NCBI GenBank assembly: GCA_015232315.1
Contig: JADFZZ010000004.1
Coordinates: 83,414 to 115,413, forward strand
Direction: 5' to 3'
Source: SAR324 cluster bacterium
GTDB lineage: Bacteria > SAR324 > NAC60-12
Length of the DNA stretch: 32,000 nt
Positions 1 through 13,095 of this stretch are shown here, piece after piece. How positions within the stretch are numbered: the first letter of the stretch is position 1; each line of letters begins with the position of its first letter. The notes under the pieces were generated by a model. That model saw only the letters and a list, made by a program, of their open reading frames with translations. It had not been told where the DNA came from and did not search any database. The position numbers were made by a program, and so were the translations under genes.

Positions 1-79
1 GATGGAAAAATAGATGAGTTTATCAAAGAAGCCCTTGTTCAGAAAATTTGTGATTAACCTAAAGTGATGAGAAAAATTT

Positions 80-571
80 ATGTCAAGCTGTTCATTTGAT
101 ATTGTTTGTGAAGTCAACCTTCAGGAACTCGACAATGGGGTCAATCAGGCTAAACGGGAAATTGAAACCCGTTATGATTTTAAAGGCAGTCATTGTGAGA
201 TCGAACTTGATAAGGAAAAATCATCGGTGTTGCTGACAGCGGATGATGACATGAAGATGAAAATGGTGATTGATATTTTATTGACCAAACTCATCAAACG
301 ATCTGTTCCTGTTAAATCCATTGTTTATGGAAAGACTGAGCCTACTGGACGTTTATTGAAAAAAACATTGACCGTTCAGCAGGGACTATCCAAAGAACAG
401 TGTAAAAAAATCACAACGTGTATCAAGGATTCCAAACTCAAAGTGCAGGCACAGGTAATGGGCGAACAAGTTCGGGTTACCGGGAAAAGTAAGGATGATC
501 TTCAGCAAATCATGGGATTGTTGAAAGGAATGGAACTGGATTTTGATCTTCAGTTTACAAATTACAGATAA
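80..571 (+). CDS. yajQ: YajQ-family (UPF0234) nucleotide-binding protein
   Basis: 163-aa ORF with an ATG start. Length and end-to-end pattern fit the YajQ family: N-terminal SFDIV, RYDFKG, and a C-terminal LQFxNxR-type end. Confidence 0.85.
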   Translation: MSSCSFDIVCEVNLQELDNGVNQAKREIETRYDFKGSHCEIELDKEKSSVLLTADDDMKMKMVIDILLTKLIKRSVPVKSIVYGKTEPTGRLLKKTLTVQQGLSKEQCKKITTCIKDSKLKVQAQVMGEQVRVTGKSKDDLQQIMGLLKGMELDFDLQFTNYR

Positions 572-573
572 TT

Positions 574-2379
574 TCAGTTCATTGGCGTCTGAGTGATCTG
601 TTTCACCGCATGGATCAGATCACTTTCCTGTGTGGCTGAGAGCATTAAAAATTCCAATCCGATGGTCCATTTATTGATGTAATCTTTTTTAACGCTGTTT
701 TTCTGCCATATGACTTTGCAAATAATTTGTATGGGATCCAGTTCAATAGCATGACCATCTTTTTCTGGCAAAAATACAATTTCAGCAATTGTGGTTTCCC
801 CCACTGTTAACGGTTCTTCCAACTCCATACGCATTCCAAACCTCGAAATATCCAGAGCGATCCCGGAAATCATGTTTTGCTTCATAAACAAGCGGGCCGG
901 CGTATAGACATCAAACCTTGGCGTGCGTCGTCGTCGTTGTTGGTTGAGATAGTAACTGGTTTCTTCCACAACACCATCCCAGAAATAATCCTCAGGCGGA
1001 TAACGCAAAAAATACCGGCAGCGTTGCAAATATTCACGCGTTATCACATCATCCGGATAAATCGCTTCACATTTTTCAAATAACTTTATGGCGTCTTCAA
1101 AGTGCTGACTTTTGTAGCGAATGATCCCTTCAAATAAAAATGCTTTGGTCTGCTGCTTTTTATCATAAATTTCAGGAGGATCATGATCAAAAACCTCAAA
1201 AATTGTAACAGGTACTCCTTTTCCCCGTATTTTAACCGTATCAATTTCACGAATGGCATAATCATCATCATTGATTTCCGCATGACTGTATCCCGTGATC
1301 AGAATACCGGCTTTGTATTGTTTGGTCAGTTGTTCCAGACGGGCAGAGATATTCACATGATCGCCCACCACGGTTGAATCCATCCTGTTTATGGTACCCA
1401 ATGCGCCGACGACGACAGCACCTGTATTGATTCCCACTCCAAAATGTATAGGTGGAAATTCTTTGGAACGATGTGCATTGTGATGTTGAATGGCTCTGTG
1501 CATTTCTATAGCAGACTGAATAGCTCTGTTGACCGAATTTTCTCTATCAAACAGTGCCATGATCCCATCGCCTATAAACTTGTCAATGAAGCCCCCATGA
1601 TCAGTGATCAACGGTTCCATCATGGTGAGGTATTCATTGAGAAATTCGAAGTTTTTTCGAGGAGTCATTTGTTCTGATATGCGGGTATAGGAGCGAATAT
1701 CAGAAAATAAAATGGTCAAAACTTCTTGATGACAATAACCCGGTGTCAAAAAATCAACGCCTTCCGCATAGATACGCTGGAGAAATTGTTTGGGAACAAA
1801 CACCTGAAACATTTTTGTGGTTTTTTCCTGTTCTAGTCGTGAGGCGATCAATTCACTGTTGGTTTCTTCAAGTTTCTGTTTGGCTGTTTTTAATTCTTCA
1901 GCCGTCCTGATGGCATTATCCGCAATCATGTATTGGATAGAAAGAGCCTCATTCAGTTCCGCTGTTTTAAGAGCGAGATCTCTTCTTTGTTCATATAAAC
2001 TGACAAAAATACGGACTTTGCTTTCCAGAATATAAGGATCAAAGGGTTTAGACAGAAAATCAACGGCGCCATGTTCATAACCTTTGAAGATATAATGATC
2101 TTCACGGAAAATGGCGGTGATGAAAATGATGGGAACATTGCGGGACAGGTCATGCTCCCTGATTCTTGCCGCAATCTCAAAACCATCAAGATCCGGCATT
2201 TGGATATCCAGTAAAACCAATGCCAGATCTTGCTCATGCGCAATCTCTATCGCACGTTTTCCTGAGGATGCGGTATAAATTTGAATGTTGAGAGACTTCA
2301 GGATGGCTTGTGTCAGAAACAGGTTTTCCTCACGATCATCTACAATCAGGATTTGAGGTGCAGGATAATTTTTAGCCAT
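574..2379 (-). CDS. Response-regulator receiver / class III adenylate cyclase / TPR-like / PilZ multidomain protein
   Basis: 601 aa. REC spans aa 9-125 (DD at 13-14, phospho-acceptor D58 in LLDIQMPDLDG, K111 in LSKPF). A coiled-coil linker follows. The cyclase domain spans aa 218-397 (metal Asp D227 in FSDIRSYT and D271 in FIGDGIMALF, K267, T336, N343 and R347 in VGDHVNISARLE). The C-terminal PilZ has RRxxxR (R483-R488) and DxSxxG (D510-G515). Confidence 0.85.
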   Translation of the reverse strand: MAKNYPAPQILIVDDREENLFLTQAILKSLNIQIYTASSGKRAIEIAHEQDLALVLLDIQMPDLDGFEIAARIREHDLSRNVPIIFITAIFREDHYIFKGYEHGAVDFLSKPFDPYILESKVRIFVSLYEQRRDLALKTAELNEALSIQYMIADNAIRTAEELKTAKQKLEETNSELIASRLEQEKTTKMFQVFVPKQFLQRIYAEGVDFLTPGYCHQEVLTILFSDIRSYTRISEQMTPRKNFEFLNEYLTMMEPLITDHGGFIDKFIGDGIMALFDRENSVNRAIQSAIEMHRAIQHHNAHRSKEFPPIHFGVGINTGAVVVGALGTINRMDSTVVGDHVNISARLEQLTKQYKAGILITGYSHAEINDDDYAIREIDTVKIRGKGVPVTIFEVFDHDPPEIYDKKQQTKAFLFEGIIRYKSQHFEDAIKLFEKCEAIYPDDVITREYLQRCRYFLRYPPEDYFWDGVVEETSYYLNQQRRRRTPRFDVYTPARLFMKQNMISGIALDISRFGMRMELEEPLTVGETTIAEIVFLPEKDGHAIELDPIQIICKVIWQKNSVKKDYINKWTIGLEFLMLSATQESDLIHAVKQITQTPMN

Positions 2380-2606
2380 TGTGAATCTACAATAAAGTTC
2401 AAATTTTTAAACTATTCAATGATTTTTCCATAACAAACGAGATCGGAGATGTCGAATTAATTGTTGCGATCACAATGAGAATTGAGGCCAACATTCCGAA
2501 TAACAGCACAAAGTGAACGCCTATGAAAATAGTTGGATCTGGTTGATGATTTGCATTAAAGTCATGATGTACTTGCCAATTCAAAAATAGTGCGAAATCA
2601 TTCAGA

Positions 2607-3065
2607 TTGATTCCCCAAACAGGTTATATGGCTATGATTCAAGATTCCATGCTGGCCCTGATTATCAGGTTTGTGGCAGGAAATAAAAAAATAAATTTTT
2701 GTGACAATGAGTTCATTCAACAACAATTGGATGAAATCCAGGCCTTTATTGAGCAGTTTCCTGAAGCAGAGCAGGAATATCAGGCAATGGTCTGGATCCA
2801 GACTTATGCCAGAAAATACCGTGAGACCTGGGAAAAAGAAATCATTACTCAGGAAATGGCTCATCAACGCTGTGCGGACTGCCCCTTGAGGAGCGGTGCA
2901 AGTTATTGCGAAATTCACAAACAATGGCTGAATCTTCTGGAACAATACATCCATCAGGATATTGGCTCACAGCAATATGTGGAATCGTCTCTTCAGTTGC
3001 TGGAAGATCATAAAAACTCTCTAAAAATCAAGGGGCGACCACAGGTTGTGTCAATAGGATGCTGA
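2607..3065 (+). CDS. Hypothetical protein with a CxxC-x8-CxxH motif (start uncertain: TTG 2607 or ATG 2628)
   Basis: 152-aa ORF with protein-like E/Q/K-rich composition, whereas the antisense ORF 2598-2954 looks like antisense junk. Contains CADCPLRSGASYCEIH. No family recognised and no clear SD. Confidence 0.45.
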   Translation: MIPQTGYMAMIQDSMLALIIRFVAGNKKINFCDNEFIQQQLDEIQAFIEQFPEAEQEYQAMVWIQTYARKYRETWEKEIITQEMAHQRCADCPLRSGASYCEIHKQWLNLLEQYIHQDIGSQQYVESSLQLLEDHKNSLKIKGRPQVVSIGC

Positions 3066-4046
3066 CAGCAGTTGCGGATTTTCCATGAGTGTTTTCATCA
3101 CACGTTCTACAGGCAGATTTTCTGTGCTGAAATCAAGCACAGGATAACGATGAAGAATTTCAGCACTGATTTCTCTCAATTGCTTCATCGGCAGACGGAT
3201 ATGGACATGGGTTCTTTCCTCATTCCATCTGGTATCCAGAGATGTCCAGAACATATCATCCCTGGATATTGGCGCCGCAAATAAAAAAGAAACATCTTTT
3301 TCTTCACCCAACAACTTCTCAAACTCCTGTATGGGACCATCAAAACGTTTCCCACCCTGAAAAATGAGCACCAGCCTTGAGCAAAGCGCCGTGACATCAG
3401 CCATATAGTGCGATGTCAGAATGATCGTGCTTCCGGTTTCCTGATGATAGGATTTAATAAATTCCCTGATTTTTTGTTGTGCGATCAGATCCAATCCAAT
3501 AGTTGGTTCATCCAGAAAAATAATCTCTGGTTGATGGAGTAGTGACGCCATCAATTCAACTTTCATCCGTTCACCCAGGGATAATTTTCGAACATGGACA
3601 TGAAGGATATGTTCAACCTGTAACAGGGAGGAAAGCAACGCAACCCTTTGTTTGAAGGTATTCCGCTCTATTTCATAGTATCGTCCCAGCAGTTCAAACG
3701 AATCCATAGCTGGTAAATCCCACCACAGTTGCGATTTTTGTCCCATAACCAGCGCGATTTTTTTTCGAAACAGGCGCTCTCGTTTTTCAGGGACATGGCC
3801 CATCACAGAGAGAGAGCCCCCTGAGGGGACAATGATCCCGGTAAACATCTTCATTAAGGTTGTTTTTCCTGCGCCATTGGGACCAAGTAAACCAATGATT
3901 TCGCCATGCTTCACACTCAGATCAAAGGGTTTGACTGCCTCATTCATTTCATGGTTGCGATAAACAAGAGATTTCAGTGCTCCTTTCAATCCGGGAGACT
4001 TTCGATAGATGCGAAATGCTTTATAAAGTCCTTGTGCTTCAATCAT
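3051..4046 (-). CDS. ABC transporter ATP-binding protein (COG4586-like, ABC-2 type)
   Basis: Walker A GPNGAGKTT, signature LSLGERMK, Walker B IIFLDEPTIGLD, and the family-typical GQKSQLWWDLP and N-terminal PGLKGALKSL. ATG at 4046 is preferred; the ORF stays open up to TTG at 4073. Confidence 0.85.
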   Translation of the reverse strand: MIEAQGLYKAFRIYRKSPGLKGALKSLVYRNHEMNEAVKPFDLSVKHGEIIGLLGPNGAGKTTLMKMFTGIIVPSGGSLSVMGHVPEKRERLFRKKIALVMGQKSQLWWDLPAMDSFELLGRYYEIERNTFKQRVALLSSLLQVEHILHVHVRKLSLGERMKVELMASLLHQPEIIFLDEPTIGLDLIAQQKIREFIKSYHQETGSTIILTSHYMADVTALCSRLVLIFQGGKRFDGPIQEFEKLLGEEKDVSFLFAAPISRDDMFWTSLDTRWNEERTHVHIRLPMKQLREISAEILHRYPVLDFSTENLPVERVMKTLMENPQLLSASY

Positions 4047-8103: not shown

Positions 8104-9378
8104 CTATTCATAAAATTTGAAATTTTTCAGTTTTTTCTTTCGTGAGCGGTCTTTCCGGGCAACGGTTCCCAAACCTTTATATTTGACATAGAGCAACAAT
8201 CGATCCAACAAATCATGCTCTTTTGTGGATAAATCCATGAACTTCAGACCATAAACCCATTGTTTATTCTGTTTTTTTCTGGTCATGATCCGTCCCCCCA
8301 GGGTCAGTGGACTGGATAGTGCTTCAGATTCAATGTTGACCCACGCCCAGGTTTTGGGTTTAATTTTGAAATGGGTCAGCAATCCCACCCCTCCCACAGA
8401 CATATCCACCAGAATGCCTTCAAAATTATCATTCAGGGTATGTCCGGAAACTGGAATATTGCAGGAATGACGTGGAGCAAATCGTTGTTCCAGGAATAGT
8501 TTACGAAAAAATATTGCATGGCTAAGCAACAATCTGGCGGATTCCTGATGAGAAATAGCGTAATTGAAATTGACCAGAAGATGATCGCCCATATGAAGAC
8601 GTGTGTCCAGTCTCACGGGAAGTCGAACAGGCCCGCTTAAGGAAGGATGGACAAAATCAACAATGGTCATTTGCTTTAGATCAACCCACTTTTCCCAGGA
8701 GCCTGTTTTGATACGTGCTTCAAAAGATAAAATACTCACATGCTCAACTGTTCCATCTACAAAAAGAATACTTTCTTCGTCTGACAACCGGCAAGTCAGG
8801 CCCGAAATAAAATTATGGATGACCCCCTGAAGATGAACATCCACCAACATGGTGCTTAGCGAATAGCGAGTGTCGGTGTTGATGGTTCCGAGATAAATAT
8901 GATAACCCAATAATGGAAGATACAACACCGCAAACAGTCCATGCAGGGCAATCAACACGCTTTTAAGTCCCGGCAAATCATGCGGACGTAAAAAATAAAG
9001 GGTGATTCCCGTAATGGACATCAGTGTAATCACGACCACTGACAAGAGTAGGAACAGCCATTGTTTCACGATCATTTTATCTGAAACGATACTTTCGCCA
9101 CCTTTACCAGTGGGATTCTGCAACACAATCAGGCTCAAAATTCCGGAACCGGTCATCCAGAAAATTCCAATGGTGATATGCCACCATCGGGTATCCCGAG
9201 CTAAAAAATCTCCCACATGGCGTAGTTCAACGATTTGAGAAATCCCCAGAGTATACAGTAACAGAATCATGGTCGCATTGAACCAGTGCAACCATCGTAT
9301 ACGGGGAGCGAATCGTGAAATGATGACAGTATCCTCAGGTGCTAACAGTTCCAGTCCGATACTTGCGGCATTTGTCAT
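8104..9378 (-). CDS. Di-heme cytochrome b (FdnI/Ni-hydrogenase b-type-like, 4 TM) fused to a C-terminal PilZ c-di-GMP-binding module
   Basis: 424 aa. There are four predicted TM helices with His at 31 (RWLHWFN), 67 (WWHITIG), 146 and 160 (LHGLFA...GYHIYLG), matching the His pattern of PF01292-type cytochromes. The C-terminus has RxxxR (R299-R303) and DxSxxG (D325-G330). AAGGA SD lies 7 nt before the ATG. Confidence 0.8.
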   Translation of the reverse strand: MTNAASIGLELLAPEDTVIISRFAPRIRWLHWFNATMILLLYTLGISQIVELRHVGDFLARDTRWWHITIGIFWMTGSGILSLIVLQNPTGKGGESIVSDKMIVKQWLFLLLSVVVITLMSITGITLYFLRPHDLPGLKSVLIALHGLFAVLYLPLLGYHIYLGTINTDTRYSLSTMLVDVHLQGVIHNFISGLTCRLSDEESILFVDGTVEHVSILSFEARIKTGSWEKWVDLKQMTIVDFVHPSLSGPVRLPVRLDTRLHMGDHLLVNFNYAISHQESARLLLSHAIFFRKLFLEQRFAPRHSCNIPVSGHTLNDNFEGILVDMSVGGVGLLTHFKIKPKTWAWVNIESEALSSPLTLGGRIMTRKKQNKQWVYGLKFMDLSTKEHDLLDRLLLYVKYKGLGTVARKDRSRKKKLKNFKFYE

Positions 9379-9399
9379 GAAGGTCCTTGGAAAATATGG

Positions 9400-9960
9400 C
9401 TACAGATATTCGCCTGTGGCAACATTGTAATATTTTGAATATTCTTTACCGGTTTTGACATGACAGTCCACACACCGGACATCAGTATTATCCCGTTTCA
9501 TATCAAAATCGCCCTCATCCATCAATTGGTGTGCGTAACGGACATCAGCCTTGCTGTGATTATGACAACTAATACATTGAACTTTTCGATACGTGGTCCG
9601 GTTGGTGATATCTTGGTGGCATTCCTTGCACTTCAACGTGAAATGATATTTTTTTCCTTCGAGCACCAGAACTTTACTGTGATATAAGGCCGCAGTGGAT
9701 TGTTTCCATCCAAAAAAACTGGGTTGATGGCACAAATTACAGGTTCCCAAATCATTATGGGCTTCCGGACGATTGGTATGGCAACTGTCACAACGGCGCT
9801 GAATGCCGTAAATATTCAGTTTCAGGTCGCCCAACAATCCGCGCCCATGCCCAAACAGTCCAACGTCAAAAAATTGCTCATAGGGCGTTTCTCTTACGCG
9901 GGGATCAGTGCATGAAATGAGCAAAAAGCAGATTCCAATTATTCCAGTGATACGAAGCAT
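9400..9960 (-). CDS. Pentaheme c-type cytochrome, probable lipoprotein
   Basis: Five CxxCH motifs (CDSCH, CNLCH, CKECH, CISCH, CVDCH) in about 170 mature residues. Start at ATG 9960 gives MLRITGIIGICFLLISC, a lipobox-type signal. The ORF is open to ATG 10056, so the start is uncertain. Confidence 0.8.
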   Translation of the reverse strand: MLRITGIIGICFLLISCTDPRVRETPYEQFFDVGLFGHGRGLLGDLKLNIYGIQRRCDSCHTNRPEAHNDLGTCNLCHQPSFFGWKQSTAALYHSKVLVLEGKKYHFTLKCKECHQDITNRTTYRKVQCISCHNHSKADVRYAHQLMDEGDFDMKRDNTDVRCVDCHVKTGKEYSKYYNVATGEYL

Positions 9961-10015
9961 CAGGGGGTTTATATGAAGCAGATTACAAATTGAGAAGGCA
10001 ATGCCACAGTTTGAC

Positions 10016-10378
10016 TCAGGATTCTTCAACTTCCTGTTCCTCATCAGAATGTACATGATCCAGGACGGTAATCAAAATCAGGGAAAACAGTGCTCCTGAT
10101 ACAAAGCCTTGTCGAACAGGCCACCAATCGTGGACAAGAAACAGGTCCGATAACGCCAGAAACACAGGGACTAATCCAATTGCCACATACACCGCATTAG
10201 GGTTGCTTATTCGAACCTTGAACCGGATAAACCGGATCAAAAATGGAATGACAACGCCCCAAACAATGCCATATCCCCAGTCTGTGTTAAATCCTCCGGG
10301 AGACGGGATGCTGAAGATTAATAGAATCAGACAGGTCAGGTTGTAAGACGAAATATGAAATTTACCAATGGGAATCAT
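10016..10378 (-). CDS. Small integral membrane protein, unknown function
   Basis: 120 aa with 3-4 hydrophobic helices and an acidic tail (SDEEQEVEES). GAGGTG lies just upstream of the ATG. It is the first gene of the cytochrome cluster on the same strand. Confidence 0.55.
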   Translation of the reverse strand: MIPIGKFHISSYNLTCLILLIFSIPSPGGFNTDWGYGIVWGVVIPFLIRFIRFKVRISNPNAVYVAIGLVPVFLALSDLFLVHDWWPVRQGFVSGALFSLILITVLDHVHSDEEQEVEES

Positions 10379-12063: not shown

Positions 12064-13095
12064 ATGATAAAAAAAATCGCAATTACCTCAATGGCTGCTT
12101 TTTTGAGTCTGTCTGTGGCAAATGCTAAATGTCTGGACCAACAGGAAACCAAATTATGTTTGGGTGGTGAAGTAGCCGGCGCATTACAAATCAGTTCCAG
12201 TGATAATGGCACAACATCATCATCTCATATTGCTACTCCTGGAAGAGCTGAGTTGACTGCGAATATTGTGTTACCAGAAAACAATGGCTGGCAAACAGAA
12301 GCCTATTATACCATTAGCTCTGACTCTAATGAAAAGCTGGATGACTATCGGATCAAGGTTTCTTCCGGTAATGTGTCAATTCTGGCTGGACGAGATGGCA
12401 TTGGCTACGTCAAACAAGGACAAAACTATGTGACAGAAATGGGATCAACCACTGTCGGAACCTATGGTGATGGAACGCTGCTCAATGATAACAATCTGGC
12501 GCTGGAATATAGAGTCAATGAGAATTTCGCAATGCGTGGTGGCTTGAGTTATGAGGCCTATGAAGCCGTTGCGGCACAGGCCGAAGTCCTCGATAGTACG
12601 ACGGGTGCCGTGATCACTCCGGCTCAGGATGCTATAAATGCTGATGCCATGGCCTTGGCGCTGGTGGCTGAAGCTAACGTTGCCGGCTTGGGATTTGGAC
12701 TTGAATTTGAAACCAAATCTTATGGCGAACCTGCGGATGCTCCAACAGGGTTTACCGCACCTGATGGGCAAACCACATTGACTGTTGGTCTGCAATATAC
12801 AATTGCTGACAAGTACACTCCCTACCTGAACTATGGATCTTTCACACAGAATGCTGATGTGACTGAAACAGGAATTGATTTTGGTGTTGACGCCAATCTG
12901 GATGTGGTCGGACTGACCGTTGGTATGGAAAATTATGACAGTGGAATTGATGGTGCTGACACAACAAGCAGCATATACCTGGGCGTGATCGCTGGTGTGT
13001 TTGGTGATACACAGGTTGGATTTCAATATCAAACCAGCACTACGGGTGATATTTCATCCAGTGAAACAATGGTTGAGTTATATAGCACATTCTAA
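12064..13095 (+). CDS. Outer-membrane beta-barrel / porin-like protein
   Basis: 343 aa. The signal peptide ends in ANA|K. The sequence shows alternating amphipathic strands rich in G/Y/T/D and a C-terminal ...ELYSTF with terminal Phe (OMP signature). AAGGA SD is present. Confidence 0.7.
   Translation: MIKKIAITSMAAFLSLSVANAKCLDQQETKLCLGGEVAGALQISSSDNGTTSSSHIATPGRAELTANIVLPENNGWQTEAYYTISSDSNEKLDDYRIKVSSGNVSILAGRDGIGYVKQGQNYVTEMGSTTVGTYGDGTLLNDNNLALEYRVNENFAMRGGLSYEAYEAVAAQAEVLDSTTGAVITPAQDAINADAMALALVAEANVAGLGFGLEFETKSYGEPADAPTGFTAPDGQTTLTVGLQYTIADKYTPYLNYGSFTQNADVTETGIDFGVDANLDVVGLTVGMENYDSGIDGADTTSSIYLGVIAGVFGDTQVGFQYQTSTTGDISSSETMVELYSTF

Follow-up and report, generated by a model that had tools for sequence, protein, structure and literature searches.

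Can a single soluble protein turn both phosphorylation and cyclic di-GMP (c-di-GMP) into a cyclic AMP (cAMP) signal? The question is raised by a gene, here called P0001, on contig JADFZZ010000004.1 of a SAR324 cluster bacterium (assembly GCA_015232315.1), within the 32,000 nucleotides (positions 83,414 to 115,413) that were analysed as a whole and are referred to below as the window. An initial annotation, made by eye, had read the gene as a fusion of a receiver (REC), a class III adenylate cyclase and a PilZ domain. Having followed this up with domain, structure, family and genome searches, we assign a probability of about 60% to the reading that P0001 is a class IIIb adenylate cyclase, soluble and homodimeric, that is regulated by two inputs, phosphorylation and c-di-GMP.

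Three domains in one soluble protein

P0001 comprises 601 amino acids read from an ATG start in one uninterrupted open reading frame (ORF), as seen in the ORF list and its translation, and is soluble, with no membrane segments (Table 1). All three domains proposed by the initial annotation were recovered above the curated cut-offs in a Pfam domain scan: Response_reg (PF00072) with 92.7 bits against 30.2, Guanylate_cyc (PF00211) over residues 219-392 with 72.0 bits against 21.9, and PilZ (PF07238) over residues 483-593 with 42.5 bits against 22.5. The individual functional residues that had been named are present as well, except that the acidic pair of the receiver is D14/D15, one position further on than the D13/D14 first given. 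In the full-length AlphaFold2 model (mean predicted local distance difference test, pLDDT, 84.5; predicted template modelling score, pTM, 0.53), the receiver is followed by a helix at 115-194, a short helix at 197-206, the catalytic domain at 216-396 and further helices at 402-459. A low-confidence linker then leads to a beta-barrel at 489-579 and a last helix at 582-597. All structure models are monomers, with pTM values of 0.53-0.58 for the full-length protein and the tail.

The cyclase carries an intact catalytic set and an ATP-type specificity pair

Six residues define the catalytic site of the cyclase domain, namely the metal ligands D227 and D271, the substrate pair K267 and T336, and the transition-state residues N343 and R347. 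Each of them is present in P0001 and aligns with its equivalent in CyaC of Spirulina (1wc0) and CyaB of P. aeruginosa (3r5g). In addition, all six are invariant in an alignment of P0001 with 20 relatives that have both cyclase and PilZ, which share 31-45% identity. The intact catalytic set that had been aligned by eye is thus borne out at the residue level, and since the functional residues are conserved across the family, the earlier view that the domain is not a degenerate scaffold also stands. The alignment to CyaC likewise confirms the Lys/Thr pair of class IIIb enzymes. At the positions of K267 and T336, the guanylate cyclase Cya2 (2w01) has Glu and Gly instead, a difference that argues for ATP as the substrate of P0001.

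The predicted fold is that of a class III cyclase: in Foldseek, the structures of the CyaC, CyaB and Cya2 catalytic domains were matched with target-normalised TM-scores of 0.80-0.85, and the P0001 model also matched OaPAC and bPAC, which combine a sensor, a coiled coil and a cyclase. Class IIIb enzymes act as homodimers, and many of them respond to bicarbonate or CO2. P0001 would be expected to dimerise in the same way.

A complete receiver is joined to the cyclase by a predicted long helix

A residue check found the receiver active site complete, with D14/D15, the phospho-acceptor D58, T88 and K111, and the family alignment showed the same residues to be kept in the REC-bearing relatives. 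In the PDB, the P0001 receiver matched those of PleD (E about 4e-24), PhoP and Spo0F. From here, one continuous helix of about 80 residues (115-194; pLDDT 85-90), presumably part of a dimeric coiled coil, is predicted to run towards the cyclase. Searched alone against PDB sequences, this linker matched only unrelated coiled coils, weakly and without significance.

The helix leads into a pre-cyclase segment with the motif FxxFVPxxF (191-199), in which F191, F194, V195 and P196 are invariant and Q198, F199, R202 and I203, the last two just beyond the motif, are at least 90% conserved among the 21 aligned sequences. PDB sequence matches of P0001 to bPAC (5mbh) and to a phytochrome-cyclase fusion (6fht) reach upstream of the catalytic domain over residues 191-206. 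Class IIIa and IIIb cyclases are said, following a description by Ziegler and colleagues in 2017, to carry a cyclase transducer element, a conserved segment of about 19 residues directly N-terminal of the catalytic domain. Judged by its position and conservation, the P0001 segment resembles such an element.

The PilZ tail retains both motifs for c-di-GMP binding

PilZ binding motifs have been defined as RxxxR and [D/N]hSxxG (10.1101/814665). Both signatures are fitted by P0001, through R484-x3-R488 within RRRRTPR (482-488) and through D510-I-S-R-F-G515, so that the RRxxxR and DxSxxG motifs of the initial annotation are present as described. They are also conserved in the family: R488 and G515 are invariant, R484 and S512 are at least 90% conserved, and the second motif reads [DN]-hydrophobic-S-x-x-G in the relatives, with the exception of P0012, which has N for S. 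Because the PilZ region is otherwise only about 25-37% identical among these proteins, the retention of the motifs is our main argument for selection on ligand binding.

A separate model of residues 400-601 (pLDDT 86.7) placed six strands within 489-579 and a helix at 582-597. It matched PilZ structures, mostly c-di-GMP-bound, with a Foldseek probability of 1.00, and the target-normalised TM-scores were 0.68 for YcgR (5y6g) and 0.67-0.71 for Alg44 (4rt0 and 4rt1). Further fold matches were VCA0042 (2rde), MapZ (5xly), MotI (5vx6) and BcsA (4hg6 and 4p00). The linker at 460-488, which ends in the arginine motif, has the lowest pLDDT of the model (about 50-73); an RxxxR motif in a flexible, low-confidence region is usual for an unliganded PilZ domain. 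At the sequence level, the PilZ region alone found no match in the PDB, and the sole match in a word-index search with residues 400-601 was the query itself.

Between cyclase and PilZ lie three confidently modelled helices (402-423, 427-440 and 445-459; pLDDT 89-96), in agreement with the TPR-like helical segment noted earlier. However, for the tetratricopeptide repeat (PF07719/PF00515), the TPR_2 profile scored only 18.8 bits at residues 414-444, under its cut-off of 27, and we therefore call the segment TPR-like and not a confirmed TPR. In the relative P0126, the same profile reached 31.2 bits and passed the cut-off. Conserved positions of the extension in the family alignment are K408, T411, G418, F427, A430, F434, P442, D444, Y450, R453 and Y456. 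The same extension ends many PilZ-less cyclases in other phyla; in a scan of genome contigs, this tail without PilZ proved widespread, occurring in Magnetococcales, cyanobacteria, Leptospira and Gallionellaceae.

A small family with interchangeable sensors

How far the architecture extends had been left as a question by the initial annotation. When the tail, residues 400-601, was searched exhaustively with phmmer in a set of 1.84 billion representative proteins, 235 matches at E <= 0.001 were obtained, of which only about 40 cover the TPR-like piece plus PilZ; the others match the TPR-like piece alone, at the end of other cyclases. The cyclase/TPR-like/PilZ module is thus rare, a small family of about 40 clusters. 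Within the phylum of the window, the complete tail was found in only 9 of 88 species genomes, belonging to 7 genera that all fall into the window's own taxonomic family, with 1-5 copies per genome and 31 in total. Relatives in the phylum go by the names 'SAR324 cluster bacterium' and 'Deltaproteobacteria bacterium TL4'. Similarly, scanning genome contigs with the family alignment returned mostly PilZ-less cyclases, and only one locus, L001 of Deltaproteobacteria bacterium TL4, reached the PilZ end.

Among the representatives, Pfam assigned REC-cyclase-PilZ to the majority, in some cases with a C-terminal STAS domain. GAF-cyclase-PilZ, REC-PAS-cyclase-PilZ and cNMP-cyclase-PilZ (cNMP, cyclic nucleoside monophosphate) also occur, as do two hybrids with the order REC-cyclase-PilZ-HisKA-HATPase-REC-REC. 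Such an exchange of N-terminal sensors (REC, REC-PAS, GAF, cNMP), together with C-terminal additions, is what one would expect of a regulated output unit. As an aside, the hybrids P0139 and P0146, both public metagenome proteins of about 1050 amino acids, have a cyclase or cyclase-like region, which Pfam no longer detects as a cyclase domain in P0146; there, PilZ may feed the histidine kinase.

A maximum-likelihood tree from a quick search has long branches, and the paralogues of one genome are scattered over its deep parts, so the duplications appear to be old and the fusion to have been kept through them. One protein lacking PilZ, P0003 (L123:4001-5326), ends after the TPR-like tail. In the tree it is sister to the PilZ-containing P0002 (L126:568-2253) and is nested inside the PilZ clade. 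Both genes adjoin a DUF4399 gene, and the two look like orthologues. This combination of tree position and shared neighbour indicates that P0003 lost its PilZ domain secondarily and recently.

A model for two inputs and one output

As first proposed, cAMP synthesis may be set by phosphorylation and c-di-GMP together, a reasonable inference from this architecture. In the model we favour, a histidine kinase would phosphorylate D58 of the receiver, and the signal would pass along the ~80-residue helix to the FxxFVPxxF segment, setting the alignment of the two catalytic domains in the dimer. As the second input, c-di-GMP would bind PilZ through the DxSxxG motif, which lies on the barrel, and through the RRxxxR arginines, which belong to the flexible linker. 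Judging from other PilZ proteins, the bound ligand would clamp the linker onto the barrel, and the clamped domain would then shift against the TPR-like extension that packs behind the cyclase domain, altering cAMP output either up or down.

Several observations weigh against this model. The ORF list and Pfam revealed no kinase gene adjoining P0001 in the window, and the pre-cyclase segment alone had no significant match in the PDB. The TPR-like extension, through which PilZ would act, scores below the TPR_2 cut-off, as noted above, and the models do not predict where PilZ sits with respect to the cyclase (pTM 0.53-0.58). Finally, P0003, a close relative of P0001, has lost PilZ and kept the rest, which makes PilZ dispensable for the cyclase as such.

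Alternatively, PilZ could serve in localisation or partner binding instead of allostery. It would then bind c-di-GMP without regulating catalysis, as a docking module that brings the cyclase to a partner or a cell site and so produces cAMP locally, or that reports c-di-GMP through its charged C-terminal helix. The canonical helix at 582-597 is indeed present, PilZ and cyclase are not confidently placed in the model (pTM 0.53), STAS or histidine-kinase modules follow PilZ in some relatives and make other outputs possible, and P0003 retains its cyclase after losing the PilZ tail. Nevertheless, we consider docking unlikely: the fusion always puts PilZ straight after the cyclase/TPR-like unit, no conserved partner gene was seen beside the family members examined, and the persistence of the fusion through old duplications with varied N-terminal sensors fits regulation in cis more simply. 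We think it very unlikely, on the other hand, that PilZ has stopped binding c-di-GMP and is only a structural or protein-interaction domain. Such PilZ domains do exist (10.1101/814665), and the failure of this one to find a solved structure by sequence, or any relatives by word search, speaks for strong divergence. Against this, both binding motifs are intact in P0001 and conserved in essentially all relatives despite the low identity of the domain, the Pfam score is nearly twice the cut-off, and the modelled fold matches ligand-bound PilZ domains.

The remaining two alternatives seem to us highly improbable. One holds that the cyclase domain is not adenylate-specific and makes cGMP or another nucleotide, or is a mere dimerisation scaffold. 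The best PDB sequence match of the P0001 cyclase is in fact Cya2 (2w01), a guanylate cyclase, and a specificity prediction from two residues is fallible; yet P0001 shares its Lys267/Thr336 pair with CyaC and CyaB and differs here from the Glu/Gly of Cya2, and the family shows no variation at any of the six catalytic residues. The other concerns the neighbouring gene yajQ, which is convergent with P0001 across a gap of 2 nucleotides (572-573), exactly as the initial annotation had reported when it hinted at a functional tie. YajQ-family proteins bind c-di-GMP in Xanthomonas (PMC4199771), and the two products might work together as c-di-GMP effectors, in a pair or a cluster. A shared transcript is impossible for convergent genes, however, and the adjacency was not conserved in any relative: yajQ was absent from beside the cyclase-PilZ gene in every related locus and genome checked. 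In the sister genomes G043, G044 and G047, yajQ and the cyclase-PilZ genes never share a contig, no yajQ turned up in G041 and G042, and P0002 and P0003, the nearest relatives, have DUF4399 beside them. The hinted tie thus falls away, and the juxtaposition is probably coincidental.

A dense cyclic-nucleotide network in the same genome

In the assembly of this genome, 5.25 Mb in size and 95% complete, we counted 45 domains of the class III cyclase type, 50 that bind cNMP, 13 GGDEF domains and 21 PilZ domains, a very dense cyclic-nucleotide network for a genome of this size. With 13 GGDEF domains, the bacterium can make c-di-GMP, and with 50 cNMP-binding domains it can read cyclic mononucleotides, both of which support the model. 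Five genes, P0001 included, carry the cyclase-PilZ module, and for one paralogue, on contig C27, a HAMP histidine kinase is encoded directly behind it. At a sixth locus, on contig C2, a cyclase gene is followed after 40 nucleotides by a gene for a stand-alone PilZ protein. This pair resembles the fusion in split form and supplies an independent gene-order link in favour of the model.

Two cNMP-GGDEF proteins and one cNMP-GGDEF-EAL protein are candidates for control in the reverse direction, of c-di-GMP turnover by a cyclic mononucleotide, and the cNMP-GGDEF fusions too speak in favour of the model. The parts for reciprocal control are thus all present, and whether they form a loop is a matter of inference. 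It is possible, if somewhat doubtful, that the five cyclase-PilZ proteins and the cNMP-binding diguanylate cyclases make up a closed two-messenger loop in which each messenger sets the synthesis of the other. Depending on the signs of its two arms, the result would be a bistable switch or an adaptive or oscillatory circuit, fed by REC, PAS and other sensors, and P0001 would become the first enzyme shown to be an adenylate cyclase under direct c-di-GMP control.

As a separate observation, the genome encodes an MMPL/RND-type transporter of 1290 amino acids that combines two cNMP-binding domains with a PilZ domain at its C-terminus (L130:642-4511, reverse strand; contig C10, about 60541-64410), which makes a dual-messenger-controlled exporter possible.

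Table 1. Features of P0001, its neighbour and related loci of the same genome. Positions refer to the window unless a locus or contig is named.
Feature	Position	Strand	Basis
Whole gene, P0001: REC / helical linker / class IIIb cyclase / TPR-like / PilZ	574..2379	-	ORF and translation, Pfam, AlphaFold2
Receiver (REC), residues 10-122	2014..2352	-	PF00072, E 2.1e-26
Long helical linker, presumed dimeric coiled coil	1810..2013	-	AlphaFold2 helix 115-194
Pre-cyclase motif FQVFVPKQFLQRI, residues 191-206, cyclase-transducer-like	1762..1809	-	Family conservation
Class III cyclase homology domain, residues 216-396	1192..1734	-	PF00211, E 6e-20
TPR-like three-helix extension, residues 402-459	1003..1176	-	AlphaFold2 helices
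Flexible linker, residues 460-488, ending in RRRRTPR (482-488, nucleotides 916-936)	916..1002	-	Model, conservation
PilZ beta-barrel and C-terminal helix, residues 489-597, motif DISRFG (510-515, nucleotides 835-852)	589..915	-	PF07238
yajQ (DUF520), neighbour only, not part of the system	80..571	+	PF04461, E 8.5e-62
Paralogue, 567-amino-acid REC-cyclase-PilZ, HAMP histidine kinase 44 nucleotides downstream	contig C27		
Paralogue, 928-amino-acid REC-PAS-PAS-cyclase-PilZ			
Paralogue, 712-amino-acid REC-cyclase-PilZ-STAS			
Paralogue, 723-amino-acid cyclase-PilZ protein, N-terminus without assigned domain			
Sixth locus, 657-amino-acid cyclase	contig C2, L093:1564-3534	+	
Sixth locus, 112-amino-acid stand-alone PilZ	contig C2, L093:3577-3912	+	
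Two cNMP-GGDEF proteins and one cNMP-GGDEF-EAL protein	L127:417-1868, L128:432-1880, L129:2-1408	-	

Genomic neighbourhood of P0001

P0001 appears to be monocistronic. Upstream of it, a 227-bp intergenic region separates the gene from a divergent ORF (2607-3065, forward strand, 152 amino acids). Neither this ORF nor another at 12064-13095 (forward strand, 343 amino acids) was assigned to a Pfam family at the thresholds used. An Rfam scan of the whole window returned no riboswitch or other RNA family, and a scan of positions 1-3200 for promoters and terminators found sites not in excess of those in shuffled sequence. Elsewhere in the window, the region 8104-10056 (reverse strand) includes a gene for a 424-amino-acid protein that joins a membrane domain of the cytochrome b561 type (Ni_hydr_CYTB) to a PilZ domain at its C-terminus; it lies directly downstream of a gene for a multihaem cytochrome c3/c7-like protein.

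Relation to known systems and significance

The closest characterized counterparts of the catalytic part, CyaC (1wc0) and CyaB (3r5g), belong to the same cyclase family and share its fold (target-normalised TM-score 0.80-0.84, about 32% identity) and the same six catalytic residues, including the IIIb Lys/Thr pair. Unlike P0001, they lack PilZ and the TPR-like tail and have different regulatory domains, and we know of no c-di-GMP control of either enzyme. Over residues 1 to ~470, P0001 also resembles uncharacterised PilZ-less REC/cyclase/TPR-like regulators (33-47% identity), for example P0026 and P0049, from Magnetococcales and cyanobacteria, and P0003. These share the receiver, the linker, the cyclase and the three-helix tail, and P0003 even nests in the PilZ clade, but as a group they end after the TPR-like tail at ~440-470 amino acids, are far more widespread and have no c-di-GMP receptor.

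With regard to the tail, P0001 resembles the bacterial cellulose synthase BcsA and Alg44 of alginate production, enzymes or co-polymerases that a fused canonical PilZ domain at the C-terminus regulates in cis and whose complexes with c-di-GMP (4p00 and 4rt0) are matched by its modelled PilZ fold. Their output is polysaccharide synthesis at the membrane, whereas that of P0001 would be a second messenger from a soluble cyclase. PleD and WspR are likewise receiver-controlled, dimerisation-dependent nucleotide cyclases. Their product, however, is c-di-GMP, which acts in product feedback through an allosteric I-site on GGDEF and not through PilZ; in P0001, c-di-GMP binding is predicted.

That cAMP and c-di-GMP signalling influence each other is well documented at the physiological level. 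The known routes, so far as we are aware, are transcription and the action of cAMP on enzymes of c-di-GMP metabolism. An example of the latter kind is Bd1971 of Bdellovibrio, in which a cNMP-binding domain is fused to an EAL phosphodiesterase, so that cAMP controls c-di-GMP breakdown (PMC6717892). P0001 would be similar in that a single protein lets one messenger act directly on an enzyme of the other's metabolism, but with different domains and in the opposite direction, from c-di-GMP to cAMP. Full-text searches, whose coverage was incomplete and whose silence is absence of evidence only, found no paper on a fusion of a class III cyclase with PilZ.

If our reading is correct, an adenylate cyclase under PilZ control would fill a gap by leading directly from c-di-GMP to the synthesis of cAMP. 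Being soluble, 601 amino acids long and endowed with clear targets for point mutation in each of its three functional sites, P0001 is a convenient object on which to test this. Beyond the single protein, the family illustrates how one cyclase/TPR-like/PilZ cassette has been reused behind different sensors in a single lineage whose cyclic-nucleotide network is unusually dense.

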